A model generated the notes under the pieces. The model searched no databases and had not been told where the DNA came from. It saw nothing but the letters and a program-made list of their open reading frames with translations. A DNA stretch of 64,000 nucleotides from Candidatus Micrarchaeota archaeon (GTDB lineage Archaea; Micrarchaeota; Micrarchaeia; Norongarragalinales; SBBD01), in contig JBDRLB010000026.1 in NCBI GenBank assembly GCA_043813365.1, positions 8,587-72,586 on the forward strand, in the 5' to 3' direction. The number at the start of each line of letters is the position of its first letter. The stretch's first letter is position 1. Of this stretch, positions 9,296 to 61,564 are shown piece after piece. The position numbers were made by a program, and so were the translations under genes.

Positions 9296-9388
9296 AGGAG
9301 GTTTCAATATCTTTTTATTCTAACCAACCCTAGTCTATTCCATGAACATCTGGCCAGCCTATATCACTTATTCAACCGGTGAACCCTC

Positions 9389-40791: not shown

Positions 40792-40841
40792 ATTTTTAAT
40801 AAGAGTAAGCGTTTTTTAAGGAGGAAGCGGTTAAAATTTCC

Positions 40842-43800: not shown

Positions 43801-46800
43801 CGTGTTCCGGAGGAACTTGGGGTTCTTGCATAGATAATTCTGGGGACGGCTGCCCCGCGCCCTCCCCGTCCGTTGTTCCGAGCCCTTCCCCCTCACCATC
43901 AGCTAGCCCCTCTGCATCTGCTTCACCAAGTGTTGCTCCCTCGCCTTCCCCTTCGCCCCAACCTCCCGCAGGAAATATTTTCGGCAATATTTACCTTACG
44001 GGCACCCCCCGCGGAGTTGGCGCAGCAAAGAGATGCACCTTATTCACCTCCAACTCAAACATTTACGCAACAGCAATCAATGCCCATTTTGCCGGCAGTT
44101 CCGGAACCTCATGCGCTTTCGGGGTTTACCAGGGAGGGAGTGACAGTCTCTCGATGCTACTCTATTCCAGCAGCGCCTTTTCCGTTACCAGCACAACAGC
44201 AGCCTGGCGCACTCAAACAATAGGAAGCCTCTACCTTCCAGCAGGGCAATACGGCTTATGCGTGATGTGCAACGGCGATTGGGCGTATTCCTCCTATGAG
44301 CCCCCTGCAGGGGTAATGCGCGGGAATTCCATCCTAAGTTTCGAGACCCCATTCACTTCAGCAGGCCAATGGACTGGCGCATACAACACGTCTATTTTTG
44401 TCAACATCACTTCCGGCTTGCCTTCCGCATCTCCCTCACCAAGCCCTTCTCCCCTGCCTGACACAACCCCTGCTGTTTTAAGCAACGGCGCACCTACGGG
44501 CACCCTCCCAATAGGGACAGCAACCGCAACCCTCTCCTTGAATACGAACGAAGCCGCAACCTGCCGCTACAGCACAACCCCCAATGTCGCTTACGCATCA
44601 ATGACGAACACCTTCACAACAACCGGAGGCACTTCCCATTCGCGCTCCTTAACTGGTTTGCAGAATGCCCAAACATACAACTATTATGTCAGGTGCATTG
44701 ATGCAGCAGGGAATGCAAACCCCACGGATTATGCAATAACTTTTTCAGTTGCAGGGGATACCGCTGCTCCAAGTTTAAGCAACGGCGCCCCAACCGGAAC
44801 GCTTCCCCAAGGCACCATATCGACCACACTCTCCCTGAACACAAATGAAGCCGCAACCTGCCGCTACAGCACAACCCCCAATGTCGCATATTCTTCCATG
44901 ACCAACACCTTCACAACAACCGGAGGCACCTCCCACTCGCGCACATTGACCGGTTTGCAGAACGGCCAATCCTACAATTACTATGTAAGGTGCATCGATA
45001 CCGCCGAAAACGCCAATACGGCTGATTATGCGATTTCCTTCAGTGTTGCTGCTGATACGATCCCAGCAATTCTCAGCAATGGCCTTCCAACCGGCACACT
45101 CCCAATTGGGACAACTTCCGCAACCCTTTCCATAAGCACAAACGAAGCCGCAACCTGCCGCTACAGCACAACCCCCAATGTCGCATATTCTTCCATGACC
45201 AACACCTTCACAACAACCGGAGGCACCTCCCATTCGCGCTCCTTAACTGGTTTGCAGAACGGCCAATCTTATGCTTACTATGTAAGGTGCATTGACACAG
45301 CAGGGAATGCCAACCCTACTGATTACGCAATTTCCTTCAGCGTCGCAACAGATACGACTTCCCCGGCTGCAATTACCAATCTCGCTGCCAGCTCCTCAAC
45401 TGATACGCAAGTAACATTGCAATGGACTTCTCCGGGCGATGACGGCTCAGCAGGAATAGCGACCTCTTATGACGTCCGCTATTCAACTTCCGCGATTACC
45501 GCAGCGAACTTCGGGGGAGCAATACCGGCAACAGGCGAACCCAGCCCGCAAGTTGCGGGCTCAACCGAATCTTATACGGTTTCCGGACTTTCTGCTTCAA
45601 CCACGTATTATTTTGCAATAAAAACAGCAGACGAAATTCCCAATTGGTCGGCTCTCTCAAATGTCATCACGAGGACAACTAACCCAACTCCGGATACAAC
45701 CGCGCCGGTGCTTTCCAACCCCAGGCCTGCAAGGAATTACATCTTCCCCTCGGGCACAACCTCAACAGTAATCGGCTTTGATACGAACGAGCCCGCAAGC
45801 TGCAGGTTCAGCACGGTGCAAGGGGTGCCATACAATTCAATGACCAGCTCGTTTATTGCAACAGGAAATTCCCATTCCGCAACTGTTTCATCCCTCCAGA
45901 ATGGCCAATCTTACAATTATTATGCAAGATGCATTGACACTTCGGGGAATTTGAACAATTCCGATTATCCGCTCTCATTCAGCATCGCATTGCCGACGCA
46001 GGATTTGAATCCGGATGTTTACCTGAATTCGCCATCTTCCGGGGCTACCGCTTACAGGGAGAGCATGCTTTTCAATTGCTCTGCAATTGATGATGCCGCA
46101 CTCGCCTCCCTTGAAATGTACGGGAATTTCTTCGGGGAATGGGGCATCATCGGAAATTACCCTGTTTCCGGAAAGCAGGCAACTGCCACATACAATATTG
46201 ACCTTTCATTGGTGCCGGCAGGAACCTACAGGTGGAATTGCCGTGCAACGGACAACGCAACTCACCAAAGCTTTGCCGCATCTAACTTCTCCCTCATGCT
46301 GATAGACCGCATTTACGATTTCATGCTTTCACCAGCAATTGATGCATTCTCTGCTTCAAACGATCCTGGCACCGTCACCAACCGGACCTATACGCTGAGG
46401 AACACCGGCAACCAATACCTTTCCGGATTCTCATGCACTGCAAGCGAGAGCTGGGTTTCCATATTCAATTGCCCAGTAGGTTTGCAGCCGGGGAATTCGT
46501 CAATTGTAATTGCCAGCTACAGTACGGGCAGCTTGCCTGAAGGAGCGCATGCGGTTTCACTCAATTTCTCCCAGCCGAATGCGGATTTCCGCCTCGCATC
46601 GGTAAATGTCAATGTTACCTCCGCACCTTACAATCCGATTCCGGTTATTTCCAATGTTTCCAACTCAACCAGCTATTCCTCCGTGATTATAAGTTGGAAC
46701 ACCGACATAAATAGCAATTCCACTGTGCTCTTTGGCACTAGCAATGCGAGTTTGGATAAAAATTCCTCCATCAATGACAACGTCCTTCTCCACTCCATAA

Positions 46801-47480
46801 ACATACAAGGGCTCTCTCCGCAAACTCACTATTACTTCCGGGTTGAAAGCTGCTCGCTTGGCGGCTGCTCATCCTCCGCGCTTTTTGATTTCATGACATT
46901 GCCGCTTCCTTCCGGGTGCGCCTACTCCAACCCCGCTTGCCCATCCGGATACTCCTGCCAGAGCAATGCATGCGTGGCAAATTATGTGCCTCCTTCCGGC
47001 CCCGGCAGCGTATATTCCCCCCCATCCTACTATCCCGAATCCTCCCCCTCGGCAAAACCCTCCGCCTCGCCGACTGCAACCAATGCTTCCTCCGTGCAGC
47101 AATTCATCGAAGTTTCATTGGAAATAGAGGAACGGCTGCCGGAAATTGATTTTGATACGGAAGGCCAGCAGGATATTGCGGACATGCTCGCGCAGGCAAA
47201 GGAATTGCAAAGGCAGGGAAGGACGGAGCAAGCGCTGGTGCTTCTAGGGAAGGCCAGGGAAAAGCTCAAGCAGACAATCGAGGATTCAAAAACCGAAAGG
47301 GCAGGCTTCACATGGCAAATAGTGGCAATGCTCAGTGTAATGTTCCTGGCTTTACTGATCTATTATGTGAAGAAGACGCACTTCAAAATAACCGAACTGC
47401 AAGGGATAAAATCCGCGCCTCCGGAGGAAAAGAAACCGGGCGCATCCGTATCTGGAAGTTACGAAGAGACGCTGAAATAG
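40842..47480 (+). CDS. Giant (2212 aa) modular cell-surface protein: signal peptide, six BNR repeats, parallel beta-helix, 3 near-identical Fn3-like repeats plus a canonical Fn3, conserved C-terminal module, TM anchor and cytoplasmic tail.
   Basis: Uninterrupted ORF. Six W/F-RSTDxGxSW motifs. beta-helix repeats rich in N/G/I/H. Many N-x-S/T sequons. PS-rich linkers. Hairpin plus T7 terminator at 47486-47516. Confidence 0.8.
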   Translation: MRKLILLLLLLFALDVPAPDVTTCGTITQAGGIYTLRNDLHAQGGCMVFASTATGATLDLNGYTIYYGEAADGTPANPDFESCSGGIPAGWDVSAAPSSTCIVGDYYYRTAYLLNGEIVPGSHSFQMTFSSGETKSILSSPVSLAGGAIYVPQVRFLMPSSYRYVTTLTTANDQNIWRSTNGGTSFSRATPDFNGAEYQNAKAIAINRNNNYLYVIEDDEDVWRSTDRGVSWTKIASNFNGRAIVGSSLMDANRVKGAVVASDNSIIAIDEVSDVWRSTDGSTWTKVNDDFNGGEADNLNSMTINGNNIIFAISGTSSGSNVWRSSDFGSTWALVGGIAGLVTAIGADRSNNLIAFNDAKAVFRSTDNGASWPSIGTVSSTGGNIRQLVADSSNTLIILADGLGRGQISPDSEIFTSTNGGASWTRTNDDYNGNSGSQAASMAIASDNELFIASGPLYETSITGGNWFGAFARYPWLPSVTDSQSNIRRYTLLTNEAVSARFRISIIAPQGSTTPAYIDEVRLVPAMYYAVDAQYARGVKITNGNIVQVNDGFWLNNIWAAQNAEISYIHGTVKGLDSFNILHGSGHIHHNVFESRGVYSTSERQYVYAPVYIACSLINSFHDNQIYARSHAGAKLSGDVYNNYVQIDSRNSNGFGIFSESGCTAGMLVHHNTINAINGRGVGANDNDIVDSNIITATERSNQEYNPFANGLYLISYGIQTETDDNVTLTNNSITVRTNPMYGDAAGLRITGNVGLSRIMNNKVTVIKEQADNTRAVALWPAQENVAQPGLMGSLFKNNEFISNNYLIMAEAVSNAFLDSNTFRRGPNPIGFTSLYFRIATSNFTLLNSTLLDGASQEATFNCGSGCSYNVEWYLIVRAQDGSGNGIPGATVRITDSTGAVIVNGQSVASDGTYTRSLRQFTNAGTSGSGTKTYYTPHTVSVTSGTQTITKSLTMDRSFLEPFVFGPCTNGQTQSCITSQSCPGTMTCSGGTWGSCIDNSGDGCPAPSPSVVPSPSPSPSASPSASASPSVAPSPSPSPQPPAGNIFGNIYLTGTPRGVGAAKRCTLFTSNSNIYATAINAHFAGSSGTSCAFGVYQGGSDSLSMLLYSSSAFSVTSTTAAWRTQTIGSLYLPAGQYGLCVMCNGDWAYSSYEPPAGVMRGNSILSFETPFTSAGQWTGAYNTSIFVNITSGLPSASPSPSPSPLPDTTPAVLSNGAPTGTLPIGTATATLSLNTNEAATCRYSTTPNVAYASMTNTFTTTGGTSHSRSLTGLQNAQTYNYYVRCIDAAGNANPTDYAITFSVAGDTAAPSLSNGAPTGTLPQGTISTTLSLNTNEAATCRYSTTPNVAYSSMTNTFTTTGGTSHSRTLTGLQNGQSYNYYVRCIDTAENANTADYAISFSVAADTIPAILSNGLPTGTLPIGTTSATLSISTNEAATCRYSTTPNVAYSSMTNTFTTTGGTSHSRSLTGLQNGQSYAYYVRCIDTAGNANPTDYAISFSVATDTTSPAAITNLAASSSTDTQVTLQWTSPGDDGSAGIATSYDVRYSTSAITAANFGGAIPATGEPSPQVAGSTESYTVSGLSASTTYYFAIKTADEIPNWSALSNVITRTTNPTPDTTAPVLSNPRPARNYIFPSGTTSTVIGFDTNEPASCRFSTVQGVPYNSMTSSFIATGNSHSATVSSLQNGQSYNYYARCIDTSGNLNNSDYPLSFSIALPTQDLNPDVYLNSPSSGATAYRESMLFNCSAIDDAALASLEMYGNFFGEWGIIGNYPVSGKQATATYNIDLSLVPAGTYRWNCRATDNATHQSFAASNFSLMLIDRIYDFMLSPAIDAFSASNDPGTVTNRTYTLRNTGNQYLSGFSCTASESWVSIFNCPVGLQPGNSSIVIASYSTGSLPEGAHAVSLNFSQPNADFRLASVNVNVTSAPYNPIPVISNVSNSTSYSSVIISWNTDINSNSTVLFGTSNASLDKNSSINDNVLLHSINIQGLSPQTHYYFRVESCSLGGCSSSALFDFMTLPLPSGCAYSNPACPSGYSCQSNACVANYVPPSGPGSVYSPPSYYPESSPSAKPSASPTATNASSVQQFIEVSLEIEERLPEIDFDTEGQQDIADMLAQAKELQRQGRTEQALVLLGKAREKLKQTIEDSKTERAGFTWQIVAMLSVMFLALLIYYVKKTHFKITELQGIKSAPPEEKKPGASVSGSYEETLK
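44458..45357 (+). repeat. Three tandem ~300-bp direct repeats (>90% nucleotide identity) encoding ~100-aa Fn3-like units; followed by a canonical Fn3 (45358-45690) and a degenerate copy (45691-46000).
   Basis: Each unit carries the ...NEAATCRYSTTPNVAY(A/S)SMTNTFTTTGGTSHSR(S/T)LTGLQN.Q(T/S)Y.YYVRCID(A/T)A.NAN..DYAI(T/S)FSVA... consensus. Long identical nucleotide runs are visible at ~44560, ~44860 and ~45160. Confidence 0.8.
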
Positions 47481-47485
47481 TTAAA

Positions 47486-47516
47486 GCGGCCGCCTTATAC
47501 GCGGCCTAATTTTTTT
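47486..47516 (+). terminator. Hairpin (GGCCGC-cttatac-GCGGCC) followed by a T7 run.
   Basis: Perfect 6-bp GC stem immediately downstream of the 40842-47480 stop, followed by TTTTTTT. Confidence 0.4.
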
Positions 47517-47570
47517 ATCTTCTTCGGGAGCATATATATATCAGACCGACCTACTTTTTCCAGTGATTTT

Positions 47571-50500
47571 ATGGCCCGATACCTCCTCTTGCTGCTCTTT
47601 TTAGTGCTTTTCATCCAGCCGCTTCTTGCGGTCCCGACGCAGATCGCCTCCGGCCAAAGCGTCCTTACGATACCGCGTCATAAAATATTCCAATCCCAGA
47701 CGAACCCGAACGAAATTTGGGCGATCTTCCAGGGCCCCGGAACTGGAAATGGCAATAACTTCATCAAAACAACCAATGGCGGCACAACCTGGAGCACTCC
47801 CCTTACAATCAGGTATTACCTCGATTACCATGCCTCCCTTGACGGCGATTCAGCAGGCAACCTTTACATTGCGGATCCCGATTCAGGCGCGGCATATTTC
47901 CGCAAGGTGAATTACCCGGGTGCCAGCACATCCGATTTCGGGCCCGAAATGCATCTCACTTCCGCCTACATCCCTTCGGGTGTGGGCACCCGCAACAACG
48001 TGATTGTGCAAAGCACAAATAGCATTTTCGTTATTGCGCGGACATCCGTGAACGCCGTAGGCAATATCCGATATTTCCATTCCACCGATGGCGGCATCAC
48101 CTTCCCGCAGCAGGGATGGGTTTCCGATACGGGCTATGACAATGTGAGGATCGGCTCCATGCTCGTCAATGGGCAGCCCGCAGTAGTTGTATGGTACAGC
48201 GACGATTCCTCATCAACCGGCTGGGGTTACAGATATTTCATCTGGAACGGCAACTCATTCGTCGCCAACCCCGACTCAACCATAGTGTGGGGATCGAAAA
48301 TCTACAGGAGGGAATACGGGATGAATTTCGTTGATGGCGACATGCACGTAATATATGAGGATAATTACGGCCATCTTCTACATTCATGGAAGCCCTACAA
48401 TGGCGGCACCGGCAGCTGGAACCAAATAACTGTTGAAACCCTCCCATACGACCCGGCTGCCTGGCATCCCTCCCTTACAAGGCACGGCAACGACCTTTAC
48501 TTATTCTACATCAGGCAGGTTACGAGCACTTCCGGGAACAACGCTGTAATGTACCGCAAATGGAACAAGGCAACAAGCTCATGGAGCGCCGCAACCATGC
48601 TCTCAACTACAACCGGAGTCCCCAACGGCTTCCCCCACGGCCCCGCAGCTGTCAACCCTTCCTCCACTTTCATCCCTGTTATTTGGGATTCGGTGGGGGC
48701 AATTATGTTCGAGAAAGTATCAACAACTTCCCAGCCTTCCCCATCCGTTACTGCTTCACCGAGCCCTTCCCCATCACCCAGCCCCTCCCCATCAATTTCC
48801 CCCTCGCCTTCCGCTTCCCCGTCCGCATCACCTAGTGTTGCAGCATCACCATCCCCATCGCCCAGTGTTCCGCCTTCCTCCAATACGATTTTCGGCAACA
48901 TCAATTACATAGGCAGTGCCAAGAGCCTTGGCGCAGCCAAGCGCTGCACATTATTCACCTCCTACTCCAACGTTTACGCAACCGCAATAAATGCGCGCAT
49001 CGCCGGCAGTTCCGGTATATCCTGCTCATTTGGGATTTACCGCGCCTCGAGCAACAGCCTTTCAAACCTCCTCTATTCCAGCCCGACTTTCCCAGTAACC
49101 AGCACAACCGAAGCGTGGTTCATGCAGCCAATAGGCAGCCTATCCCTTGCAGCCGGCCAATACGGGTTATGCACTGTTTGCAATGGCGATTGGGGCTATT
49201 CCAGCCAGGACACTCCGGCTGGCATCATGCGCGGAAATTCCATCCTGAGTTTTGAAGATCCCTTCACTACGGCCGGCCAATGGACCGGTGTTTACAATGC
49301 GACTATTTTCGTAAACGTCTCCACTGGAATTCCAACTGCATCGCCTTCCGTCGCACCCAGCCCGAGCGCATCGCCCTCTCCGGCCGCAAGCCCTTCACCC
49401 TCGCCAATTCCCTCCCCTAGCATTTCACCTTCTCCTTCCCCGAGCCCATCCCCGTCTCCCAGCACAGCGCCGCCATCCGGTCATTTCACCGGCTGCTCTG
49501 ATCCGGCTCTTTCGCCCCTGCTTGGCGGCCGCACATGCGTCCCAGTGACAACTTGCGGAATAACTTTCACCTCAAACCGCTATTACCTTTTAACACAAAA
49601 TGTGCAAAGCGACGGCACCTGCTTCCTCATTGAAAACGCACCCAACACAGTCCTCGACCTGAACGGCTATACCGTTACTTTCGGCCTCAATCCCCCTTAT
49701 GTTGCAAGCTGCGGCGGTTCCAGCGGCTATATTTGCGCTTACGGAATAAGGAACCGCTATAGCGACAACGCGAAGATGACTAACGGGAATATCGTCCAAG
49801 CAAAGGGCGTAAATTTATTGTCCATTAGCAGTGCAGTAAGGGTTGCCGCAAACAATCCTGAAGTTTCCTACCTGAACATTTCCGTTTACAGCAATGACAG
49901 CGGGGTCATCTCCATATTCGGAGGCGGATACGGTTCCGTCCACCACAATGAAATTTACTCCACTGCATCAATCATCACAAATAGGCATTTGGTACGTGCA
50001 GGCATCGAGGTTGGAGACGGATCAAATAGCGTTTCGATTTACAACAACAAGATCATCGGAGTCCCCCAATTCGGGATCTCCTGCGCCTGGCCAAGGGATT
50101 ATGCAACCTACCCGATTGACACTCCGATCAATTGCGACATCCATCACAACTACATCAGCCAGGACGCGTCCCGCACGTCAAACGGCTATGCCATAGGCTC
50201 GGATTCATTCTCGACAATCCACGATAACGTCATCGAAACAGCAGCCGGCCGGGGCATCGGCTTTTCACGCCCATACCTTTTCATTTACAATAACATCATC
50301 AATGTTACCCAGCCGAATACCGGGGAAGGCGGATCCGCAACTGCACATGGGATCCAGCTTGAGGATTTTGCTTCCCATTCCATGATTTACAATAATACCG
50401 TGTTTTCATGGAGCTCCCTACCTGACGGAGGCACAAGCCCGTTGGGGATACATCACTGCGAAGCGAACCTCAATCTTACCATTTATGGCAACACCTTCAT

Positions 50501-52682
50501 TTCCTATTTCAGGGGCGGCCCCGGAGTGAATTTTGCGTTAGGATCGGGATCGGACACCTCCTCCTCCGCATGCGGAGGGGTGAACATTTACGACAACGTT
50601 TTCATGAGCAACAGCCGAGCGATTTCCAGCTATTACGGCGGCGGGATCCGCGGATACAACTTCACCAACAACCGCTTCATCCTCCTGACCCCCACAATCT
50701 CCTCGACAAGGTTCTTCGATATGGCTGGGGAAATTTCGACTGAAAATACCTTCCTCAACACGACCCTTATAGGGTACAGCTACCGCGATATGTATTCCAG
50801 CAACGTTGCCGCTTACACCGTCAGCTGGTTCCTCGACATAAGCGTTTACGACAGCGGTGCAGCTGCAAACGGCGCCCAAGTGCAGGTTGTAAGCGCACGC
50901 GGCAACACCCATTCCGCAACAACCGTGAATGGAAAAGCGCATTTCGAACTTCCGCAAGCGGATTACCGTTATTCCGGAGGGCTCACGACAACGGAATACA
51001 ACAGTTACGTGATTACGGTCACCCTCAACGGCCAAACGCAAACCAGGACCGTAGACTTGACGAGATCCCTGCTTGAGCAGTTCTATTTCACAACGACTCC
51101 CTGCACAAACGGCAACACGCAAAGCTGCACCACTTTGCAAGGCTGCTCCGGATCGCAGACATGCATTTCCGGAACCTGGAACGCCTGCACAGACAACAAC
51201 CCGAATGACAATTGCCCGCCTGACAATGCCCCCACTGTTTTCCTCAATTCCCCGAACAGCGGCTATTCAACATTCGGCAATTCAGTCACATTCAATTGCT
51301 CTGCGAATGATGATTTCGGCCTCACCAACCTTGATTTATTCACCAACACCGCAGGTTCCTGGCAGGCTTCATCAACGAGGTCCGTTTCCGGCACAACAAC
51401 AACCCAGACCTATACGTTAAGCAGCCTCTCTTCTGGTTCCTACATCTGGAACTGCCGTGCAACCGATTCAACCGGAAAAACATCCTTCAGCTCCATCAAT
51501 TACACGTTCTCCGTATTGCAGCCGATCTACAATTTCTCCCTCTCAACCGCATCGGATTACTTCTCAGTGCAGCCGAATTCCATCATAACAAGAACCTACA
51601 CTATTTCAAACAACGGCAACCAGAACCTTGCGGCATTCGCATGCACCTCGAATGCCAGCTGGGCGGCAATTTCAAATTGCCCTCCCTCGCTTCAAGTTGG
51701 GAACAGCACGACCATTTCCGCATCATTCAATACGGCGGGTTTGGCTGAGGGAATTTACGGCGTCCGCTTGGCATTCTCCGAACCCAATGCGGGTGCAAAA
51801 ACAATTGCTATTGTAGTGAATGTCACTTCAACTCCCGTAAACCCGATCCCGGCAATATCCAATGTGAATGCAACCCCCTCCTACAATTCCGCAACAATCA
51901 TTTGGAATACGGACATCAACTCTAACTCAACCGTTTCATACGGCACCAGTCAAGCCAACTTGAACAACTCGGCAAATAACGGCGATAATGTGCTTTCGCA
52001 CTCCCTGTTGCTATCTCCACTCTCGCCCTCCACGCAATATTATTACCGCATAATGAGCTGCTCGTTGGGCGGATGTTCCAGTTCTGCAATCCAGAGTTTC
52101 AACACCACTGCATTGCCCACTGGCTGCGCATACTACAATCCGCCTTGCCCATCCGGCTACTCCTGCCAGAGCAATGCATGCGTTGCGACTTACGTGCCCC
52201 CATCCGGGCCCGGCAACGTGTATTACCCGCCAAGCTACCCGCAAGCTTCCCCCTCAATAAGACCATCCGCCTCCCCATCAACTTCCCCAACAATTTCCCC
52301 CAACCAGCAATTTGTTGAAACCGTATTGGAAATAGAGGAGCAGCTCCCGGAAATTGATTTCGACGTTCAAGGGCAAAAGGATATTGCGGACATGCTCGCG
52401 CAGGCAAAGGAACTGCAGCGGCAAGGCCGAACAGAACAGGCACTGGTGCTGCTTGGGAAAGCAAGGGACAAGCTGAGGCAGACGGCTGATGCCGCAAAGG
52501 ACAGCAAGGCGAGCTTCTCGTGGCTGGTTGTTGCGATAATAATCATCCTGCTCCTCGCTATAGCGATTTATTACGTGAAGAAAACCCATTACAAAATAAC
52601 CGAACTGCAAGGAATAAAATCCGTGCCTCCAGAAGAAAAGAAACCGGACACATCCGCAAGTTACGAAGAGACGCTGAAATAA
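47571..52682 (+). CDS. Giant (1703 aa) modular cell-surface protein, paralog of 40842-47480: N-terminal BNR propeller domain, shared mid module, parallel beta-helix, shared C-terminal module, TM anchor and cytoplasmic tail.
   Basis: TATA GCATATATATATCA about 30 bp upstream. Signal peptide. Co-linear similarity to the 39421 protein (N-terminus) and to 40842-47480 (mid module and ~490-aa C-terminal module, including nearly identical TM and cytoplasmic tail). Confidence 0.8.
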   Translation: MARYLLLLLFLVLFIQPLLAVPTQIASGQSVLTIPRHKIFQSQTNPNEIWAIFQGPGTGNGNNFIKTTNGGTTWSTPLTIRYYLDYHASLDGDSAGNLYIADPDSGAAYFRKVNYPGASTSDFGPEMHLTSAYIPSGVGTRNNVIVQSTNSIFVIARTSVNAVGNIRYFHSTDGGITFPQQGWVSDTGYDNVRIGSMLVNGQPAVVVWYSDDSSSTGWGYRYFIWNGNSFVANPDSTIVWGSKIYRREYGMNFVDGDMHVIYEDNYGHLLHSWKPYNGGTGSWNQITVETLPYDPAAWHPSLTRHGNDLYLFYIRQVTSTSGNNAVMYRKWNKATSSWSAATMLSTTTGVPNGFPHGPAAVNPSSTFIPVIWDSVGAIMFEKVSTTSQPSPSVTASPSPSPSPSPSPSISPSPSASPSASPSVAASPSPSPSVPPSSNTIFGNINYIGSAKSLGAAKRCTLFTSYSNVYATAINARIAGSSGISCSFGIYRASSNSLSNLLYSSPTFPVTSTTEAWFMQPIGSLSLAAGQYGLCTVCNGDWGYSSQDTPAGIMRGNSILSFEDPFTTAGQWTGVYNATIFVNVSTGIPTASPSVAPSPSASPSPAASPSPSPIPSPSISPSPSPSPSPSPSTAPPSGHFTGCSDPALSPLLGGRTCVPVTTCGITFTSNRYYLLTQNVQSDGTCFLIENAPNTVLDLNGYTVTFGLNPPYVASCGGSSGYICAYGIRNRYSDNAKMTNGNIVQAKGVNLLSISSAVRVAANNPEVSYLNISVYSNDSGVISIFGGGYGSVHHNEIYSTASIITNRHLVRAGIEVGDGSNSVSIYNNKIIGVPQFGISCAWPRDYATYPIDTPINCDIHHNYISQDASRTSNGYAIGSDSFSTIHDNVIETAAGRGIGFSRPYLFIYNNIINVTQPNTGEGGSATAHGIQLEDFASHSMIYNNTVFSWSSLPDGGTSPLGIHHCEANLNLTIYGNTFISYFRGGPGVNFALGSGSDTSSSACGGVNIYDNVFMSNSRAISSYYGGGIRGYNFTNNRFILLTPTISSTRFFDMAGEISTENTFLNTTLIGYSYRDMYSSNVAAYTVSWFLDISVYDSGAAANGAQVQVVSARGNTHSATTVNGKAHFELPQADYRYSGGLTTTEYNSYVITVTLNGQTQTRTVDLTRSLLEQFYFTTTPCTNGNTQSCTTLQGCSGSQTCISGTWNACTDNNPNDNCPPDNAPTVFLNSPNSGYSTFGNSVTFNCSANDDFGLTNLDLFTNTAGSWQASSTRSVSGTTTTQTYTLSSLSSGSYIWNCRATDSTGKTSFSSINYTFSVLQPIYNFSLSTASDYFSVQPNSIITRTYTISNNGNQNLAAFACTSNASWAAISNCPPSLQVGNSTTISASFNTAGLAEGIYGVRLAFSEPNAGAKTIAIVVNVTSTPVNPIPAISNVNATPSYNSATIIWNTDINSNSTVSYGTSQANLNNSANNGDNVLSHSLLLSPLSPSTQYYYRIMSCSLGGCSSSAIQSFNTTALPTGCAYYNPPCPSGYSCQSNACVATYVPPSGPGNVYYPPSYPQASPSIRPSASPSTSPTISPNQQFVETVLEIEEQLPEIDFDVQGQKDIADMLAQAKELQRQGRTEQALVLLGKARDKLRQTADAAKDSKASFSWLVVAIIIILLLAIAIYYVKKTHYKITELQGIKSVPPEEKKPDTSASYEETLK

Positions 52683-52739
52683 GCGCGGCGCCCCCATCGA
52701 GCCATAAGCAAAGGAATTGCCTTAGATGAAGGCGCTGGT

Positions 52740-52747
52740 TTAAATAC
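52740..52747 (+). promoter_or_regulatory. TATA box (TTTAAATA) about 26 bp upstream of the ATG at 52770 (leaderless-type).
   Basis: Spacing typical of archaeal leaderless promoters. Confidence 0.35.
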
Positions 52748-52769: not shown

Positions 52770-53900
52770 ATGGTGGAAAAATTCTGGCTATTGGCACCCT
52801 TGCTGATTTTCGCCGCAATCCCGGCATATGCGCAGGAGGCGCCTCCCTCTCTCCCTCCCGGAGGTTTCGAGGTGAATCTGTTCTTCGTTGATTCCTACAC
52901 TTCGGAGCCGCTGCGTGAGAGGATGGTGCTTGCAATTTATTCGGCCAACGATACGCAGGAGTGGGTGCTGAGGAAAACGGACGGCCGGGGCGTAATCGCG
53001 CTTATAATGGATGGCGGCACCTACGACCTTGTTGGGGAAATCAACGACCGTGCCGCCTCACCCGGAAATGATTTTTTCGCGAGGAAACGGCTTTCCATAG
53101 AATCCAGCCGGAATTTCACCGTGCAGATGATGCCCGTCGGCACTCTCATCGGCACCGTGCTTTTGGACAATTATGCGGTTGAAAACGCACGGATCTCCCT
53201 GAAGTGCGCATCATCACTTTACGACATGGGCGAATTCTACAGGAATGTCAAAACTGACGAGCTCGGCACGTTTTCGCTGAGGAACGTCCCGGCTGAAAGC
53301 TGCGAAATATTTGCCAGCTACAATGGAAAATCGGGCAGGGAAAACATTGCACTGCAGCAAGGGCAGCTGCTCCGGGTGGATATACGACTCGAGCAAAAAT
53401 TATCCGAGAACCCCGGGCCGAACTATTTGGAGATCATCCTGATACTCTTTTCCTTCCTCGTATTGGGCCTGGTGGTTTACAAGAAATATTTCGCGGAAAA
53501 AAAGGTTCATTTCAGGGGCGTTGGAAATAAGGGCATGGAAACTGGCGAAAAAAAATCTGTTGCTGCGGATAGGAAAATTATCCCTAAAAAAATAAATAAT
53601 AAATTGGAGAGTGCGGAGGAATCCGGATCAGGTGATATTGCTGGCAAAGGGGGAAAAGTCCGAGTCAACAAGAAAATGGATGGCATCATACGCACGCTGA
53701 ATGAGAACGAGAGGAAAATAATCGAATTCATCATTGCCCAGAATGGAAGGAGCCGCCAGAACCGGATTTACCATGCGCTGCTGATACCGAAAGTGTCGCT
53801 CTCGCGCGCAATATTTTCGCTGGAGAACAAGAACATCGTGAAAACGCGCTCTCTGGGGAAGGTGAAGGAAGTTGAATTGAGTGATTGGTTTCTCCAGTGA
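52770..53900 (+). CDS. Membrane-anchored one-component regulator: signal peptide + extracellular carboxypeptidase-regulatory-like beta-sandwich + single TM + cytoplasmic winged helix-turn-helix.
   Basis: Signal peptide MVEKFWLLAPLLIFAAIPAYA. CarboxypepD_reg-like unit (GTVLLDNYAVENARISL...DELGTFSLRNVPAESCEIFASYNG). TM helix YLEIILILFSFLVLGLVVY. C-terminal wHTH of MarR/ArsR type (NENERKIIEFIIAQNGRSRQNRIYHALLIPKVSLSRAIFSLENKNIVKT). Confidence 0.55.
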   Translation: MVEKFWLLAPLLIFAAIPAYAQEAPPSLPPGGFEVNLFFVDSYTSEPLRERMVLAIYSANDTQEWVLRKTDGRGVIALIMDGGTYDLVGEINDRAASPGNDFFARKRLSIESSRNFTVQMMPVGTLIGTVLLDNYAVENARISLKCASSLYDMGEFYRNVKTDELGTFSLRNVPAESCEIFASYNGKSGRENIALQQGQLLRVDIRLEQKLSENPGPNYLEIILILFSFLVLGLVVYKKYFAEKKVHFRGVGNKGMETGEKKSVAADRKIIPKKINNKLESAEESGSGDIAGKGGKVRVNKKMDGIIRTLNENERKIIEFIIAQNGRSRQNRIYHALLIPKVSLSRAIFSLENKNIVKTRSLGKVKEVELSDWFLQ

Positions 53901-54006
53901 ATGAGCTAAATAGGCGGAATTTGGCTTATTTTCCTATAAAGAGGTCTATTTAATGTTATTTTTCAGATTTTAAGTAAAATTAATTATTTATAATCAAAAT
54001 GAAGCT

Positions 54007-54030
54007 ATTTGGTACGATTTATTACCAAAT
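54007..54030. promoter_or_regulatory. Perfect palindrome ATTTGGTA-N8-TACCAAAT between the regulator gene and the CARDB gene.
   Basis: 8-bp perfect arms with an 8-bp spacer, 16 bp upstream of a TATA-like TTTAAATA (54046-54053). Confidence 0.3.
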
Positions 54031-54151
54031 TGATCCGCCCAACCTTTAAATATCGCTTGAAGTAATCATAATACCCACTTAGGCAAAATTGCCATGCCAG
54101 AGCAAACCCGGCTTGCCGTTTTGCCAGTTATAGTAAACAAGGTGCGTTTGA

Positions 54152-56971
54152 ATGAATAAGTCGATTGCATTCTTTGTATGTGCGGTTTTCATTTTTTCAT
54201 TGCTTCCTTTTGCATATGCAACAACCCCTACTCCGACAATTTCCCCCTCTCCGACTGTGATTGAAAGCGGAACCGCAACCAGCGGCGGAATAGGAGGGAC
54301 GGCGATCCTAATAAAATCCTATTCCTATACGGTTAATTTCAAGCAAGGCTGGAACCTGTTTTCAGTGCCGCTTACGAACAGCAGGATCATTTCAACTGAT
54401 TGCGTGAAAAAGCCCATATATTATTACAATACGGGGCAAAACCAGTATTATTCACAAGGAGGGTTTGCTGTTGGAACTGAATTGCTAGGTGGTTTCGGCT
54501 ACTGGTACAAATCAGATTACAATTGCAAGGCAACTTTCATGGGCTCCGGCCATTATGCACTTCCGTTTGGAATGGAGCTAGGGGCAGGCTGGAACCAGAT
54601 TGGCGCGCCATACGATACAATTAATTTCAAAGAGATGGCGGGCAACTGCGATGTTGTTTCGGGGCCCTACAAATTCAATACTGCTGCTTACAAATGGGAA
54701 AAAGCAGAAATGCTCCAGAAAGGGGAGGGGTACTTCATCAAAGTGAGGAACGCATGCGCACTCAGTGCACAGCCGCCCAATCCGCCAGAATCCCTGCCAG
54801 ACCTGACAATTTCAGAATTGCCATCGATGCCGTCGCCCAATGCCGGAGATACAATTTCCCTGAAGTACATCGTGAAGAACATTGGCCCTGGCAAAGCGGG
54901 CTCCTCGGTGCTTAAAATCGGAGGCAACACTGGTGGGCTGTATTCAGTCCCTTCATTAGGTGCGGGCGAGCAATATGCGGCGTACCACAAATTCATCGTC
55001 CCTTCCTCGCAAGTGCAGATAATCGTGACTGTTGATTCAAACAACCAGGTTGAGGAAAGCAATGAGAACAACAATCAATTCGTGCAGTACCTATATGTGG
55101 GGAATAACACCCAGAAAGGGTTCGATCCCGGGATCGTGGAGATTTCCCTCTCAAATAGCAACCCTAAGGCGGGCGAAGCGTTTACCATAAATATTCCAGT
55201 AAAGAATTACGGGGATGTGGGCGGCTACATCACTAGCTTCTCACTCGGCCTTACTGGCGGCGGAGAGGGAAATAACCTCGGTGGAGGGTTCGGCATGGCG
55301 GAGGGCGGAAACAGGTACCTCGGTCCCGGGGAAACCTATATTTACCAGGCAAACAGCCAAGTCCTTCCAACTGGGGGAATGTGGACTGCAACCGCAACTA
55401 TTAGCGCAACGAACGACATCAATGCGGGGAACAACGTATACAAAAGAACGCTCTATGTGGCTCCTGCCAGCACCGGATTCGACCTCGGGATATATGTGAT
55501 TTCCATTTCACCCTTATCGCCTAAGGTAGGCGACACCATCACCGTCACTGCCTATCTCTATAATTATGGCGACACGGGCGGTTATCTGAAAGGGCACTCC
55601 TTTTCGATTTCAGGGCCAACTGGTGCCCAAGGCGGAAGCGCTACCTCGCCCGTATCGGGCACGTACATTGGAGGTCACCAATATTATACTCTGAGTTCAA
55701 CATTTTCAAACACTTTCAATGCGGCCGGGAGCTGGAATGTCAAGGCGTCAATCAGCCCGGAGGGCGACATCAATTCCGCAAACAACCAGCTGGATAAGCA
55801 ATTTGCCGTCAGCGAGTCCCCAACCAACTGCGAGTATTATGGTGACGGCTCGAGGTCGGGAATGAAAATCAACTGCAAATGGCATGCAAACAACGGCTAC
55901 ATCGTGCAGCTGAAGGACGTATCCTCATTCGCGCCCCAGAGGGCGCAATTTGATGTGCTGACATCTGCCGGTTCACTCGTAAAGAGGGTGTATTTGGGAA
56001 CAGGTGAAAGCACCGTTGTTACTGAAGCGGGGAATCTTTACCTATACGTAAATAACATGGCATTTTACCAACCCGCCACGAATTCCTATGTTGACCTGAC
56101 AATAAAATCAAACTACCAGCAGAATACTGGCTTCGACCTTGGAGTATATTCAATAAGCATTTCACCGCAGCAGCCGAAAGTGGGCGAATCTGTCACAATA
56201 ACTGCCAATCTCTACAATTACGGGGATACGGGCGGCTACCTGAAGGGGCACAGCTTCAATTTTGAAGGCCCCCAGAGTTCCATGGGTGGCGGCGGGGGCT
56301 CTGCGCCAATAAGCGGTGGAACTGGAATTTACATCGCAAGCCATCAATATTACACAATAACCTCCACGTTTGCAAACACATTCAATACGGCTGGAAACTG
56401 GAAGGTGAAAGTAACAATCAACCCGGAAAATGACTACAATTCTGCAAACAATCTCATGGATAAGACCTTCTACGTCGAAGCGCAAGGGACCAATACGACC
56501 CCCTCGCCATCTATTTCTCCCACTCCTTCAATTACCGCGACTCCGTTCACTCCCCAATTCTTTGACCTTTATATCAGGAATTCGTATTGGGCTTCCCCAT
56601 CACTGATTTCGCTCTTCAATCCTGCCGACAGGTGGAGGTTTGTCGGAACGCAGCAGCTTGCATCCAGCGGGTCATACGTTTCCATTGCCGGAATGGAGGA
56701 TTCGATAAATTTTGACCGCGATTACAACGACATGGCTTTTGACGTGACTTCGGTGAATGATGTCAAGCGCGTCTCGGTCAAGATCAATTCCTGCAATTCA
56801 GCCGCTGCGGATGCAGTTTGGGTAAAATACCTCCAGCCGGGGAATTCAACGGCAATGATAATGGAAACGAACGAATATGTAATCGGGGAATATCCGGAGA
56901 TAATGGTATTTCCCCAATGCTCCGGGAATGAGGGAAAATCCCGGTCCGTGTGGATCTACGGGGCCGCATAA
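54152..56971 (+). CDS. Secreted 939-aa protein with an N-terminal ~180-aa domain shared with the next gene and multiple CARDB-like repeats.
   Basis: Signal peptide. CARDB-like units (LPDLTISELPSMPSPNAGDTISLKYIVKNIGPGKAG...). Two long near-identical internal repeats (GFDLGIYVISISPLSPKVGDTITVTAYLYNYGDTGGYLKGHSF... vs GFDLGVYSISISPQQPKVGESVTITANLYNYGDTGGYLKGHSF...). GGTG SD 8 nt before the ATG. Confidence 0.65.
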   Translation: MNKSIAFFVCAVFIFSLLPFAYATTPTPTISPSPTVIESGTATSGGIGGTAILIKSYSYTVNFKQGWNLFSVPLTNSRIISTDCVKKPIYYYNTGQNQYYSQGGFAVGTELLGGFGYWYKSDYNCKATFMGSGHYALPFGMELGAGWNQIGAPYDTINFKEMAGNCDVVSGPYKFNTAAYKWEKAEMLQKGEGYFIKVRNACALSAQPPNPPESLPDLTISELPSMPSPNAGDTISLKYIVKNIGPGKAGSSVLKIGGNTGGLYSVPSLGAGEQYAAYHKFIVPSSQVQIIVTVDSNNQVEESNENNNQFVQYLYVGNNTQKGFDPGIVEISLSNSNPKAGEAFTINIPVKNYGDVGGYITSFSLGLTGGGEGNNLGGGFGMAEGGNRYLGPGETYIYQANSQVLPTGGMWTATATISATNDINAGNNVYKRTLYVAPASTGFDLGIYVISISPLSPKVGDTITVTAYLYNYGDTGGYLKGHSFSISGPTGAQGGSATSPVSGTYIGGHQYYTLSSTFSNTFNAAGSWNVKASISPEGDINSANNQLDKQFAVSESPTNCEYYGDGSRSGMKINCKWHANNGYIVQLKDVSSFAPQRAQFDVLTSAGSLVKRVYLGTGESTVVTEAGNLYLYVNNMAFYQPATNSYVDLTIKSNYQQNTGFDLGVYSISISPQQPKVGESVTITANLYNYGDTGGYLKGHSFNFEGPQSSMGGGGGSAPISGGTGIYIASHQYYTITSTFANTFNTAGNWKVKVTINPENDYNSANNLMDKTFYVEAQGTNTTPSPSISPTPSITATPFTPQFFDLYIRNSYWASPSLISLFNPADRWRFVGTQQLASSGSYVSIAGMEDSINFDRDYNDMAFDVTSVNDVKRVSVKINSCNSAAADAVWVKYLQPGNSTAMIMETNEYVIGEYPEIMVFPQCSGNEGKSRSVWIYGAA

Positions 56972-56989
56972 TTTTAAATGAGGTGTTTT

Positions 56990-58783
56990 ATGAACAAATA
57001 CGTTGTGATTTTTGGGGCGATGCTTCTGGTTGCAAGCATGGTATTTGCCACTAACGAATCTGCCACGCCTACGGTTTCATCCGCGTCTTCGGGCGGAGGG
57101 AGCGGAGGGGGAGTAGCTGTTGCAATTAAGGCTACTACTACTTCCGAGAAAATGGTTCCGATATTCCCCTGTTCGAGCAAATATGCGAATCCCTCGAATT
57201 GCATAGTGGATGATGAGATGCCGCCATTGCCGGATGATGATTCGGCATCCGCATATTCTATTACGCTCAATTTGCGCAAGGGCTGGAACATGATTTCCTT
57301 CCCCTACCTTATGCGCCTCTATTACGAGAATGGCGGCGGATCCTACCCTACAATCAAAATTGTGAGGAACACATGCGATTCCACACAACTTATGCACTAC
57401 GATCCGGGAAATTCGGCAAAATGGGAGACGTGGGTGCTTGGAGGCACGGGGACTGGTGCGCCTTTCCTTGGCTATTGGTACAAGGCGAGCAGGGACTGCA
57501 GCATCACCATCGAGGGAAACGAGAAAGTTGATGCTAACTCCAAATACCTTTATGCGGGCTGGAACCAGATTGGTGCATCTTCGAGCGAGGTCACCTTCAG
57601 TTTAATGACCGGCACATGCACGATCACTTCCGGGCCATGGAAATACAATGCATACGCGAAGCAGTATGAAAAAGCGTCCACGCTGATTCCCGGAATAGGG
57701 TATTTCGTGAAAGTAGCTGCCAATTGCATGCTTTCAGAAAACGAAGAAATGCCGCCCTTCCCGACTGAGCAGCCAATCGTGACGGTTTACCCGACAATAC
57801 GGCCCACTTATTACCCGACAATTTATCCCAGCCCTCAGCCATACAAGCCAACCATTCTCCACCGGACAATAAGGGACTGCACAACTGACCGTATAATGAC
57901 GCAGGCGGAGTCACTGAACATTGATGTGAACTCTGCGGAATACAAGGGGCTCACGCTTGATGATCCCGTGAAGAACATCCAGACGATCGATTTGCGCGTC
58001 ATCCAGGGGGGGCAATACGGCAATTACATGTGCAAGAGCAGGAAGCTAGAGCAGTGCGAGCTGGTGCAAACTACCGCCCAGAAACAGCTGATGCTGGACC
58101 TCAATTTCGACGAAGGCTCAGGCAACGTGCTGAAATCCTCCACCAACAGCCTTCAGGCAACTGCTACGAATCCCATATGGGTGGAAGGAAAATCCGGGAA
58201 AGCACTGATGTTCAATGGCAACTCCTACGTAAGGATTCCAAGCAACCCCGCGCTTAATTTGGGCGACCGTTACCTGATCGAATTGTGGTTCCAGCCGATT
58301 ACGGACCCCAACACGTGGTCAGGAAGCTACCAGACAATGGTCAGCAAGGAAGGAGAATATATTTTCAGGTTTGCCAACGGCCATGATGAGAAGGGCAATG
58401 GGAGGATACTCAGCACCATAGATTTCGGCGCAGGGATAGACCAGCATGCGAATGCGTACCTTCCGGGCTTCAGGTACGGAGGGGGCAGTTATGCAGGCCA
58501 CGAAACAGGGGACATCGAATTCGTTCCGGGCAACTGGTACAAGATGGAAATGGAATATGACGGCGCCTACCTCAACCTTAGAGTGAACGGGCAGACGATT
58601 TCGAGGACGAAAACGAGCAGGAACAAAGTATCCGGCAATAATGACCTGTACATTGGCTCGCACATCAACGGCATCGACCGGCTTATAGGCATAATAGATG
58701 AAGTGAAAATCTGGAGCACAAGCGCTTCAATGTACGACCCGAAAGACATCTACTACGATGAATGGTGCGAATACGGGCGCTGA
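56990..58783 (+). CDS. Secreted protein with a shared N-terminal domain and a C-terminal concanavalin A-like/LamG lectin domain.
   Basis: Signal peptide MNKYVVIFGAMLLVASMVFA. N-terminal domain homologous to 54152 (GWNQIGA, GYWYK, GYFVKV motifs). C-terminus LDLNFDEGSGNVLKSS...ALMFNGNSYVRIP...YLIELWFQP...LYIGS...IDEVKIW is typical of Laminin_G_3. Confidence 0.65.
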   Translation: MNKYVVIFGAMLLVASMVFATNESATPTVSSASSGGGSGGGVAVAIKATTTSEKMVPIFPCSSKYANPSNCIVDDEMPPLPDDDSASAYSITLNLRKGWNMISFPYLMRLYYENGGGSYPTIKIVRNTCDSTQLMHYDPGNSAKWETWVLGGTGTGAPFLGYWYKASRDCSITIEGNEKVDANSKYLYAGWNQIGASSSEVTFSLMTGTCTITSGPWKYNAYAKQYEKASTLIPGIGYFVKVAANCMLSENEEMPPFPTEQPIVTVYPTIRPTYYPTIYPSPQPYKPTILHRTIRDCTTDRIMTQAESLNIDVNSAEYKGLTLDDPVKNIQTIDLRVIQGGQYGNYMCKSRKLEQCELVQTTAQKQLMLDLNFDEGSGNVLKSSTNSLQATATNPIWVEGKSGKALMFNGNSYVRIPSNPALNLGDRYLIELWFQPITDPNTWSGSYQTMVSKEGEYIFRFANGHDEKGNGRILSTIDFGAGIDQHANAYLPGFRYGGGSYAGHETGDIEFVPGNWYKMEMEYDGAYLNLRVNGQTISRTKTSRNKVSGNNDLYIGSHINGIDRLIGIIDEVKIWSTSASMYDPKDIYYDEWCEYGR

Positions 58784-60601: not shown

Positions 60602-61564
60602 TCAGAATCTCATCGAGAGCAGGCCGATGATTTCAAGTATATTTCCGAATAGGATCCCTATTACCAACGCTATGAATATGTAGGGCCCGAACCTTGGCAG
60701 CACCTTGCTGATGGGGAATAATTTCATCCCCTCCTTCTTCTGTATTTCCGAAAGCTTCTTCACCTGCTTCTGTGTCAGGACCCTCTCCAGGCCGTATTTC
60801 CTGACAATTTCCGGGGGCATCTTCTCCATTGCCAGGATGTCCTCATCCTCTATTTTTGGGATCGGTATCCTCTGGATGACGATTTCATCCAGGATCTGCT
60901 GCCTGAAAGTGAGGAAGAATGCCGATGAAAGGAAAAGCAGCATGAACATTGCGGAGGCGATCGATACCCCGAAGTAAAAGTAGAGGAATACCGCGCCTAA
61001 GAACAGCCCGATGATGCTTGCCGTCCCTACAAGCATATTCGGCTTCAGGCGCTTTTTGGATTCCACAAGCGCAATTGCATACTGCATTGATGAGCCTATT
61101 GTTGCAAGGAACGAGCTCGCGAGGAAAATGGTGAGCAGGAAAAGGAAGTGCTTGAATACGTTCAGGTATCCGATGAGGAACCAGTTGTCACCTGAAAATT
61201 CGGAAAGTGCGGAAAAATCAAGCCCGAATGAAATGGGGTTCAGGAAGCGCAAACTAAGGGGCGCAAGCGGGAGAAGCTGCTGAATCGCGACGAAAAGGAG
61301 CACGTCGCCCATCCCCAGCTGGCCTTTCCTGTAAAATACATACCCTAGCGCAAGGATGACTATGGAAACGATCAGCGCGTACACTATGAGGTAGGAATTT
61401 TCCGTGATGAACGGGAGGAAATTGAGGACCAACGCAACAAGCAGCATCAAGTAGATGATTTTCTCATCAATGAATGAGGTTTTGTAATCCTGGTATGCAG
61501 CCGCACCTACCCCTATGAGGGCAACTGCGATCCTGATGTATTCCAGATTAAGCGCTTCCATCAA
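60602..61564 (-). CDS. Polytopic membrane protein, possible A24-family prepilin/preflagellin peptidase.
   Basis: About 8 TM helices. GMGD motif (LGMGDVLLFVAI) and an earlier Asp (AAAYQDYKT), resembling the two catalytic Asp of A24 peptidases. Confidence 0.4.
   Translation of the reverse strand: MMEALNLEYIRIAVALIGVGAAAYQDYKTSFIDEKIIYLMLLVALVLNFLPFITENSYLIVYALIVSIVILALGYVFYRKGQLGMGDVLLFVAIQQLLPLAPLSLRFLNPISFGLDFSALSEFSGDNWFLIGYLNVFKHFLFLLTIFLASSFLATIGSSMQYAIALVESKKRLKPNMLVGTASIIGLFLGAVFLYFYFGVSIASAMFMLLFLSSAFFLTFRQQILDEIVIQRIPIPKIEDEDILAMEKMPPEIVRKYGLERVLTQKQVKKLSEIQKKEGMKLFPISKVLPRFGPYIFIALVIGILFGNILEIIGLLSMRF

Follow-up and report, generated by a model that had tools for sequence, protein, structure and literature searches.

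Transmembrane transcription regulators (TTRs), which combine a DNA-binding domain with at least one transmembrane (TM) helix, occur in 367 of 404 archaeal species at about four per genome, and single-pass proteins are their commonest type (56%; Demey et al. 2023, PMC10269533). The only archaeal entry among the characterised TTRs in that survey is ArnR/ArnR1 of Sulfolobus acidocaldarius, a one-component membrane-bound activator of archaellum and pili with sites upstream of the promoter (PMC10269533). Here we analyse a gene in a 64,000-nucleotide stretch of DNA from a Candidatus Micrarchaeota archaeon (contig JBDRLB010000026.1; hereafter the window, whose position numbers are used throughout). 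The coding sequence (52770..53900, + strand, ATG start, stop codon counted) specifies a 376-aa protein that carries both features by which TTRs are operationally recognised, a predicted DNA-binding domain and a TM helix, and we infer that it binds DNA and regulates from the membrane, as the class implies. On balance, we favour the reading that it is a type I membrane-tethered one-component transcription regulator of the surface-protein operon next to it.

In its general plan the protein resembles ToxR, TcpP and CadC: a single pass through the membrane, an extracytoplasmic sensor, a flexible cytoplasmic linker and a winged helix-turn-helix (wHTH) domain for binding a promoter. These three are type II proteins, with an N-terminal cytoplasmic wHTH of the OmpR/PhoB type and a C-terminal periplasmic domain, whereas the Micrarchaeota protein runs in the reverse order, with signal peptide and ectodomain at the N-terminus and the wHTH at the C-terminus in a predicted type I arrangement. 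Its wHTH is MarR/ArsR-like, gives no Trans_reg_C match at E<=10 and has no sequence relationship to theirs. A first-pass annotation of this DNA had described the gene as ToxR/CadC-like in logic and unrelated in sequence, and the absent Trans_reg_C match and reversed domain order agree with it.

With ArnR the protein would share the character of an archaeal one-component membrane-bound regulator linked to a cell-surface structure, with sites upstream of the promoter. ArnR reportedly has an N-terminal cytoplasmic HTH, C-terminal TM helices and essentially no ectodomain; going by that description, the present protein is set apart by its ectodomain of ~190 residues, its C-terminal wHTH and its occurrence in DPANN lineages. 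Among soluble regulators, DUF7343 proteins and those of the MarR/ArsR/TrmB type have a similar wHTH, the nearest folds being MarR, the ArsR/SmtB repressors and PH1932, whereas here the domain is fused to a TM helix and an ectodomain, not to a ligand-binding or dimerisation module. MarR family proteins comprise ~140-150 residues, and their N- and C-terminal helices form a dimer interface around the wHTH; because these dimerisation helices are absent, ours is not a MarR/ArsR protein in the family sense.

The first-pass annotation had also called such an architecture unusual for archaea, which was overstated because the TTR class is present in the great majority of archaeal species, as counted above (PMC10269533), and the family described here comprises at least 375 clusters. 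The text and available supplements of that survey do not mention CarboxypepD_reg, DUF7343 or Micrarchaeota, and a literature search on DUF7343 returned no paper. The family and its target are thus far undescribed, every named member being annotated as hypothetical or uncharacterized.

Architecture, topology and family of the 376-residue protein

The protein begins with a signal peptide (residues 1-21; 52770..52832, + strand), recognised by hydropathy and an A-x-A-Q motif: its N-terminus, MVEKFWLLAPLLIFAAIPAYA|QE, consists of a hydrophobic core followed by A-x-A, with cleavage predicted at AYA|QE, and the pattern A-x-A-Q-x-x-P-P-x-L-P is kept in the close family. Two tandem beta-sandwich domains follow, both modelled by AlphaFold with a predicted local distance difference test score (pLDDT) >90. 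The first (residues 33-120; 52866..53129, + strand) has no Pfam match. The second (residues 122-209; 53133..53396, + strand) is CarboxypepD_reg-like: PF13620 matches residues 127-208 with E=3e-7 and 31.1 bits (gathering cut-off 32.3), PF13620.13 is assigned to the identical database protein P0001 in precomputed Pfam, and 78 of 120 relatives match the same family. This second sandwich also contains two near-invariant cysteines, C146 and C178, each kept in at least 90% of 150 sequences. In Foldseek searches this tandem pair matches pilins and adhesins of Gram-positive bacteria (E about 1e-7).

A single TM helix (residues 219-242; 53424..53495, + strand), marked by a Kyte-Doolittle peak of 2.48 and modelled as a helix by AlphaFold, separates the ectodomain from a basic linker (residues 243-298; 53496..53663, + strand) that is predicted to be cytoplasmic and disordered (pLDDT <50). 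The linker region carries a net charge of +7 over residues 241-305, and it varies in length and is gapped in the family alignment. The full-length AlphaFold model (mean pLDDT 80) starts with a short N-terminal helix, is disordered over residues 247-294 (pLDDT <50) and ends in a compact C-terminal domain (residues 301-375).

Topology was deduced from hydropathy and the positive-inside rule. In the 376-aa protein, the flanks of the TM helix contain two lysines and arginines (K+R) on the N-terminal side and five on the C-terminal side. Among 153 relatives, 152 have the internal TM helix and 135 combine an N-terminal hydrophobic segment with exactly one internal TM helix. Over 15-residue flanks in those 152, the mean K+R count is 5.6 after the helix and 1.75 before it; the C-terminal side is richer in 147, equal in 5 and never poorer. 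Because this bias towards positive charge on the C-terminal side holds across relatives, it places the wHTH in the cytoplasm and the N-terminus outside, in a predicted type I topology. The placement of the wHTH would be the same if the N-terminal segment were an uncleaved anchor.

The C-terminal wHTH (residues 299-376; 53664..53897, + strand), assigned from DUF7343 and the AlphaFold model, contains a recognition helix at residues 341-353 (PKVSLSRAIFSLE) and a wing at residues 357-370. DUF7343 (PF24034) matches residues 311-365 (E=2.5e-5, 24.5 bits, gathering cut-off 27.6); it is listed in precomputed Pfam for seven of the eight homologues P0002-P0009 and is found in 79 of 120 relatives at E<=1e-3, with a best E of 4.8e-15. 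Other HTH families matched among these 120 relatives are MarR_2 (27, weak), TrmB (22) and HTH_24 (10), and the 376-aa protein itself has no MarR or MarR_2 match at E<=10. Modelled on its own, the domain reaches a pLDDT of 94.9 and a predicted template-modelling (pTM) score of 0.83, with the order helix-helix-strand-helix-helix-strand-strand and then a short helix. Its Foldseek neighbours are of the MarR type, including the DNA complexes of MftR (8ylg) and HpaR (7el3), and of the ArsR/SmtB type (CzrA, CadC-pI258, SqrR and HlyU), together with archaeal PH1932 (template-modelling scores 0.67-0.76, probability 1.00). According to these models, the C-terminal domain does adopt a wHTH fold closest to MarR/ArsR. 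It is the most conserved part of the protein in the family alignment, and of the only two residues that never vary among 150 sequences, one is R346 in its recognition helix. The folded part spans ~78 residues, without the N- and C-terminal dimerisation helices of MarR and ArsR.

Taken together, the hydropathy, charge bias, AlphaFold and Foldseek results bear out the order proposed by the first-pass annotation: a signal peptide, a beta-sandwich ectodomain, one TM helix, a basic linker and a cytoplasmic MarR/ArsR-like wHTH. That annotation had named a wHTH outside the cell, or a C-terminal domain of another fold, as grounds for giving the idea up; the charge bias puts the domain inside and the model gives a wHTH. 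Its single CarboxypepD_reg-like ectodomain of ~190 aa stands as regards the sandwich fold and has to be divided into two domains, of which only the second has the Pfam signature. The kinship it saw between this ectodomain and the repeats of two giant surface proteins encoded upstream finds no support in sequence: a hidden Markov model (HMM) of the ectodomain has no other match in the window at E<=1, Pfam detects no CarboxypepD_reg domain in either giant at E<=0.01, and tblastn also found no ectodomain similarity there.

A separate comparison concerns the Z-alpha domain of fish PKZ (PDB 4kmf/2rvc), to which the wHTH bears a weak resemblance (phmmer E=1.1; Foldseek 33% identity over 58 columns). 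The Asn and Tyr with which PKZ contacts Z-DNA align with S345 and F349 (aligned residues 345-349; 53802-53815, + strand), and a Z-alpha identity was rejected.

The identical database protein P0001 is a hypothetical protein from a Candidatus Micrarchaeota metagenome-assembled genome. Eight further full-length homologues (P0002-P0009) share 29-44% identity with the 376-aa protein, and these, with the large family around them, identify 52770..53900 as a real, conserved gene. A family profile built from the nine proteins was compared with 1.84 billion cluster representatives (clusters at 50% identity) and matched 2073 of them at E<=1e-3, 760 at E<=1e-10 and 375 at E<=1e-30. The top 150 matches all align end to end (lengths 258-435 aa), and the family with the full-length architecture appears to number at least 375 clusters. 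Named members are all "hypothetical" or "uncharacterized membrane protein" and come from Micrarchaeota or Woesearchaeota, a taxonomy drawn from these few names, as a look-up of ten cluster representatives gave none. A word-indexed homologue search with a 120-sequence profile returned the same nine proteins plus one, and scans of metagenomes and GTDB with narrow peptide patterns yielded 6 and 7 loci. Family HMMs of the ectodomain and the wHTH gave no other match in the 64-kb window at E<=1, and it holds no paralogous TM-wHTH gene.

The architecture would also be compatible with another way of reaching the same target. The membrane form could be inactive, and an ectodomain signal could lead to cleavage in the linker or TM helix that frees a wHTH fragment of ~80-130 residues; anti-sigma factors controlled by regulated intramembrane proteolysis and membrane-bound transcription factors are analogues. 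A protease could plausibly act on so long, disordered and variable a linker, the wHTH forms a compact unit of its own, and a gene for a GxGD-type aspartyl peptidase (Peptidase_A24; 60602-61564, minus strand) lies syntenically a few genes away in the Micrarchaeota clade. This peptidase is, however, the ordinary prepilin/archaellin peptidase and is unlinked in the Woesearchaeota loci, no S2P, rhomboid or other intramembrane protease was found adjoining the gene, and the family alignment reveals no conserved cleavage motif in the TM helix or linker. Moreover, the characterised TTRs ToxR, CadC and ArnR act while membrane-bound (PMC10269533). We therefore consider proteolytic release quite unlikely and prefer a regulator that would act from the membrane.

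A conserved gene pair and its promoter element

Across relatives (orthologous loci designated L001 onwards), a gene for a large signal-peptide protein lies directly downstream of the regulator gene, on the same strand and separated from it by a spacer of 60-700 nt, in 17 of the 18 different genomes compared (the window, L001, L002, L004, L006, L007, L011, L012, L013, L016, L018, L019 and L022-L026). Judged by gene order, this surface-protein gene is the conserved partner of the regulator, an adjacency kept across two phyla. In the window, the first predicted target gene (54152..56971, + strand) encodes a 939-aa secreted protein with a signal peptide, a 'GWNLFSVP' domain and, by Pfam, CARDB and DUF11 domains; its homologues lie directly downstream of the regulator in L001, L002, L006, L007, L011 and L012. 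The second (56978..58783, + strand) encodes a 601-aa secreted LamG protein (Pfam Laminin_G_3), with homologues in the same position in relatives (54% identity to that of L001). Since only 6 nt separate the two genes, they are probably co-transcribed. The downstream proteins are homologous within clades: those of the Micrarchaeota clade combine an N-terminal "GWNLFSVP" domain with CARDB/DUF11, and those of L004, L013 and L022 match S_layer_C above its gathering cut-off (31.5-37.6 bits vs 23.9).

When the spacers between the regulator gene and its downstream neighbour are aligned, a block of the form AAATGGAACG-N14-CGTTCC(G/A)CCCAA is far better conserved than its surroundings and is followed by a TATA box 1-3 nt further on; the same consensus can be written AAATGGAACGAT-N10-ATCGTTCCGCCCAA. 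The corresponding operator-like element of the window (54006..54044, + strand), delimited by the ortholog spacer alignment and a position weight matrix (PWM), is a candidate binding site of the wHTH. It comprises, all on the + strand, a left half-site GGTACG (54011-54016; consensus GGAACG), a 14-nt spacer, a right half-site TGATCC (54031-54036; consensus CGTTCC) and GCCCAACC (54037-54044), which abuts the putative TATA box TTTAAATA of the downstream operon (54045..54052, + strand), an invariant A/T block in the seven-locus alignment. The conserved unit in the window is thus 54011-54036 plus 54037-54052. A PWM built from seven relatives, with the window left out, ranked 54006-54044 first in the 64 kb on both strands (25.2 bits vs 9.8 for the next best site), and the same scan of the window found the element at none of the promoters of the giants.

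The exact sequence GGAACG-N14-CGTTCC was sought on both strands of whole loci of 7-21 kb. It occurs once per locus, at this promoter only, in L001, L002, L007 and L011, and with one mismatch in L006; L016 also has the exact form at this promoter. Elsewhere the arrangement changes: in L004 and L018 a third copy, AGTTCC, accompanies GGAACG-N5-CGTTCC; L012 retains the proximal half together with AAATGG; L022 adds two copies to an inverted pair; and the Woesearchaeota-type loci L013 and L019 contain three or four direct copies of TGTTCCGC with a phasing of 10 nt and one copy located 23 nt beyond, past the TATA box. In all five of the variants L004, L018, L013, L019 and L022, the GTTCC copies follow a phasing of 10-11 bp. 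In each locus, this promoter is the only place where GTTCC[GA]C stands beside a TATA box. Since the half-sites are conserved and the spacer varies, with a phasing of 10-11 or 20 bp retained, the pattern is that of a protein-binding site.

Regarding L013 (5922-5984), L019 (4074-4176) and L022 (6021-6126), we observed that the TATA box is flanked by three or four copies of TGTTCC(G)C in direct or mixed orientation, and that the distance from the copy before it to the copy after it is fixed at 23 nt. This geometry suggests occlusion of the TATA-binding protein (TBP) and transcription factor B (TFB). One further sequence in the window, GAACCGCCCAACATTCATTTTTT (8938-8968, just past the DUF373 gene), is the only other case of CCGCCCAA plus an A/T run; it resembles the promoter-proximal half of the element and may be a chance occurrence or a second weak site.

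An inverted repeat ahead of a gene could also act as RNA, either as a terminator hairpin of the regulator gene or as a structured leader. A hairpin does fold in some loci (L002, -10.2 kcal/mol, z=-4.3; L001, z=-2.1), whereas in the window folding is confined to another register (z=-1.5) and L012 forms no hairpin (z=+0.7). The repeat precedes the TATA box of the downstream gene and is therefore not part of that gene's transcript, and where small open reading frames (ORFs) have been inserted, in L002 and L018, it keeps its place beside the downstream promoter instead of remaining at the 3' end of the regulator gene. In addition, the arms show sequence conservation without compensatory changes, the repeats of other clades are direct and not inverted, there is no T-run after the repeat, and neither Rfam nor tRNA scans of the region gave a match (a bacterial promoter/terminator scan is uninformative for an archaeon). 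An RNA element is for these reasons very improbable. The inserted ORFs themselves are small and on the minus strand, between the regulator gene and the element (L018 1133-1790; L002 11104-11740).

The first-pass annotation had pointed to a palindrome, ATTTGGTA-N8-TACCAAAT, at 54007-54030. The palindrome is present and overlaps the conserved element, but extends over the left half-site and the spacer only; in L002 and L011 the sequence homologous to its right arm is the spacer "CACCAAAT". As an operator in its own right it was rejected, being not conserved in relatives and within the range of chance alone: 385 of 2000 dinucleotide shuffles of the 251-nt spacer gave an equal or better palindrome.

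Several observations weigh against the regulator reading and have to be set beside the element's conservation. Thirteen promoter windows of ~80 nt contain 28 GTTCC/GGAAC pentamers against 2.46 expected (Poisson P about 3e-20), a P-value that overstates independence, since these promoters come from related loci and the ~80-nt windows were positioned with the motif already known. Within its clade the window has the most degenerate site, with changes in both half-sites and no exact GTTCC/GGAAC pentamer, although its wHTH is unchanged. Four more distant Woesearchaeota loci lack GTTCC and keep only AAATGGGCA and [TA]CCCACC[CT]AA-TATA. One family member, L021, has no same-strand downstream gene. As to the protein, its CarboxypepD_reg and DUF7343 matches fall just under the Pfam gathering cut-offs, and the modelled wHTH lacks the dimerisation helices of MarR/ArsR, yet would face two half-sites 20 bp apart. 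The CCRCCCAA block could be the TFB recognition element (BRE) of a strong promoter and not a regulator site, and the wHTH is tied to the element through guilt by association.

Some of these points would equally fit a wHTH that is no gene-specific regulator, which instead tethers the nucleoid or a plasmid-like partition site to the membrane, binds RNA or another protein, or belongs to a structural anchor that holds the surface layer by its ectodomain, while the element is the core promoter (BRE) of a surface-protein gene with very high expression or is read by another factor. The structural neighbours of the domain do include the centromere-binding AspA and TubR as well as TFIIE; no part of the element is more deeply conserved than CCRCCCAA, which adjoins the TATA box in the position expected of a BRE; and the degenerate half-sites of the window and the missing target in L021 point the same way. 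CCRCCCAA is, however, not found ahead of the TATA box at other promoters of the same loci, that of the regulator gene included, which argues that it is not a generic BRE. The retained half-sites with varying spacers and helical phasing likewise speak for a dedicated site, and the two genes remain adjacent across both phyla while every other neighbour changes. In the four distant loci the recognition helices read PRTSLAR or PRTSLSR, against PKV[ST]LSR elsewhere, so that the type of recognition helix tracks the type of promoter motif, which hints at co-variation of protein and site in a few lineages. We regard a non-regulatory role as unlikely and retain the tethered regulator as the preferred reading.

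Genomic surroundings of the conserved unit

Upstream of the regulator gene, the neighbours differ between genomes: a glycosyltransferase in L007, ribosomal L16 in L004, a radical SAM protein in L022, archease in L024, and others. In L001, L002 and L006 the A-type ATPase operon (I, c, E, C, F) immediately precedes the gene, after which come a secreted protein of ~900-1000 aa, a second large secreted protein and, beyond these, DHH, A24 peptidase and AIR synthase genes on the opposite strand. The window contains atpF at 38954-39262 (82.5% identical to that of L001), and a block of ~13 kb (39379-52682) then separates it from the regulator gene. This block holds a 470-aa ORF and the two giant surface proteins of 2212 and 1703 aa. 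Within 10 kb of the orthologous gene, five relatives have no homologue of any of these three, whereas homologues of the CARDB and LamG proteins are present there. Because the giants have no counterpart in relatives, in which the regulator gene adjoins the A-ATPase operon, 39379-52682 looks like a lineage-specific insertion of surface-protein genes outside the conserved unit. The first-pass annotation had proposed the gene as a natural candidate for the regulator of its island; the partner was misidentified, and it is the downstream CARDB-LamG pair with which the gene is conserved. The reading of the locus is corrected accordingly, with the upstream giants left outside the unit.

A TATA-like box of the regulator gene itself, TTTAAATA (52739..52746, + strand), was read from the sequence, with promoter function predicted; TTTAAATA or a similar box stands at the same place before the orthologues in L001, L006 and L007. 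As it lies ~24 nt ahead of the ATG, it suggests a leaderless transcript or one with a very short leader.

We also noted several features of the surrounding genes. The GWNLFSVP domain, which belongs to no assigned family, is common to residues 59-216 of the CARDB protein (54326-54799) and residues 78-270 of the LamG protein (57209-57787), where it is N-terminal; it is present in all downstream proteins of the Micrarchaeota clade and is C-terminal in that of L012. A small Heavy_Cys_CGP gene follows the surface-protein genes in L001 (16590-17084), L002 (20223-20690) and L007 (17126-17548), and the window, with only 324 nt between 58783 and 59107, appears to lack it. The Peptidase_A24, DHH and AIR-synthase genes all keep their synteny with the regulator and its target genes across the Micrarchaeota clade. 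Positions 114-10555, near the beginning of the window, hold a giant, DUF373 and a GT4 glycosyltransferase and are syntenic with the region immediately upstream of the L007 regulator (L007 1-9220), so the same gene blocks are arranged differently among Micrarchaeota genomes.

Proposed mode of action and significance

In the mechanism that we favour, the Sec signal peptide would direct export of the two tandem beta-sandwich domains and one helix would anchor the protein, leaving the small cytoplasmic wHTH to reach DNA on a basic, disordered tether of ~55 residues. The wHTH would then bind the bipartite element GGAACG-N14-CGTTCC at the promoter of the CARDB/DUF11 gene, with the LamG gene next in line, and would do so from the membrane, as ToxR, CadC and ArnR do. 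Both inverted and direct arrangements of half-sites may be tolerated because the tether is flexible. The proximal half-site ends 7-8 bp ahead of the TATA box, at what would be the upstream edge of the BRE and beside the TFB site; archaeal activators often bind at this edge. In L013, L019 and L022 the extra copy after the TATA box looks more like repression, so that the regulator may act as an activator or as a repressor. Through modulation of binding by the ectodomain, the state of the envelope or of the surroundings would be coupled to the output of the surface-protein operon.

A more far-reaching version, which we put forward only tentatively and think improbable as a whole, sees the family as the dedicated feedback regulator of the main surface-layer (S-layer)-like protein in DPANN archaea. 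What its adhesin-like ectodomain would sense outside the membrane is unassembled surface protein or contact with a host cell, and the promoter of the surface-protein gene would be kept at the membrane through the tethered wHTH. A protein of ~900-1500 residues could in this manner be transcribed, translated and exported by Sec with these steps spatially coupled and tuned to the demand of the envelope.

DPANN archaea are tiny symbionts with very small genomes, few regulators and a lifestyle that depends on the cell surface, and to our knowledge little has been learned of how they control it. We know of no regulator of an S-layer gene described in archaea, and our literature search found nothing that links S-layer genes of DPANN archaea or Micrarchaeota to a regulator. 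The analysis yields a testable module made up of a large unannotated family, a predicted adjacent target operon and a predicted operator. If the proposal is true, a surface-layer-type gene of archaea would for the first time have a regulator assigned to it, and the protein would be a rare signalling device in organisms with few transcription factors and a type I counterpart of ToxR/CadC-style signalling in archaea.

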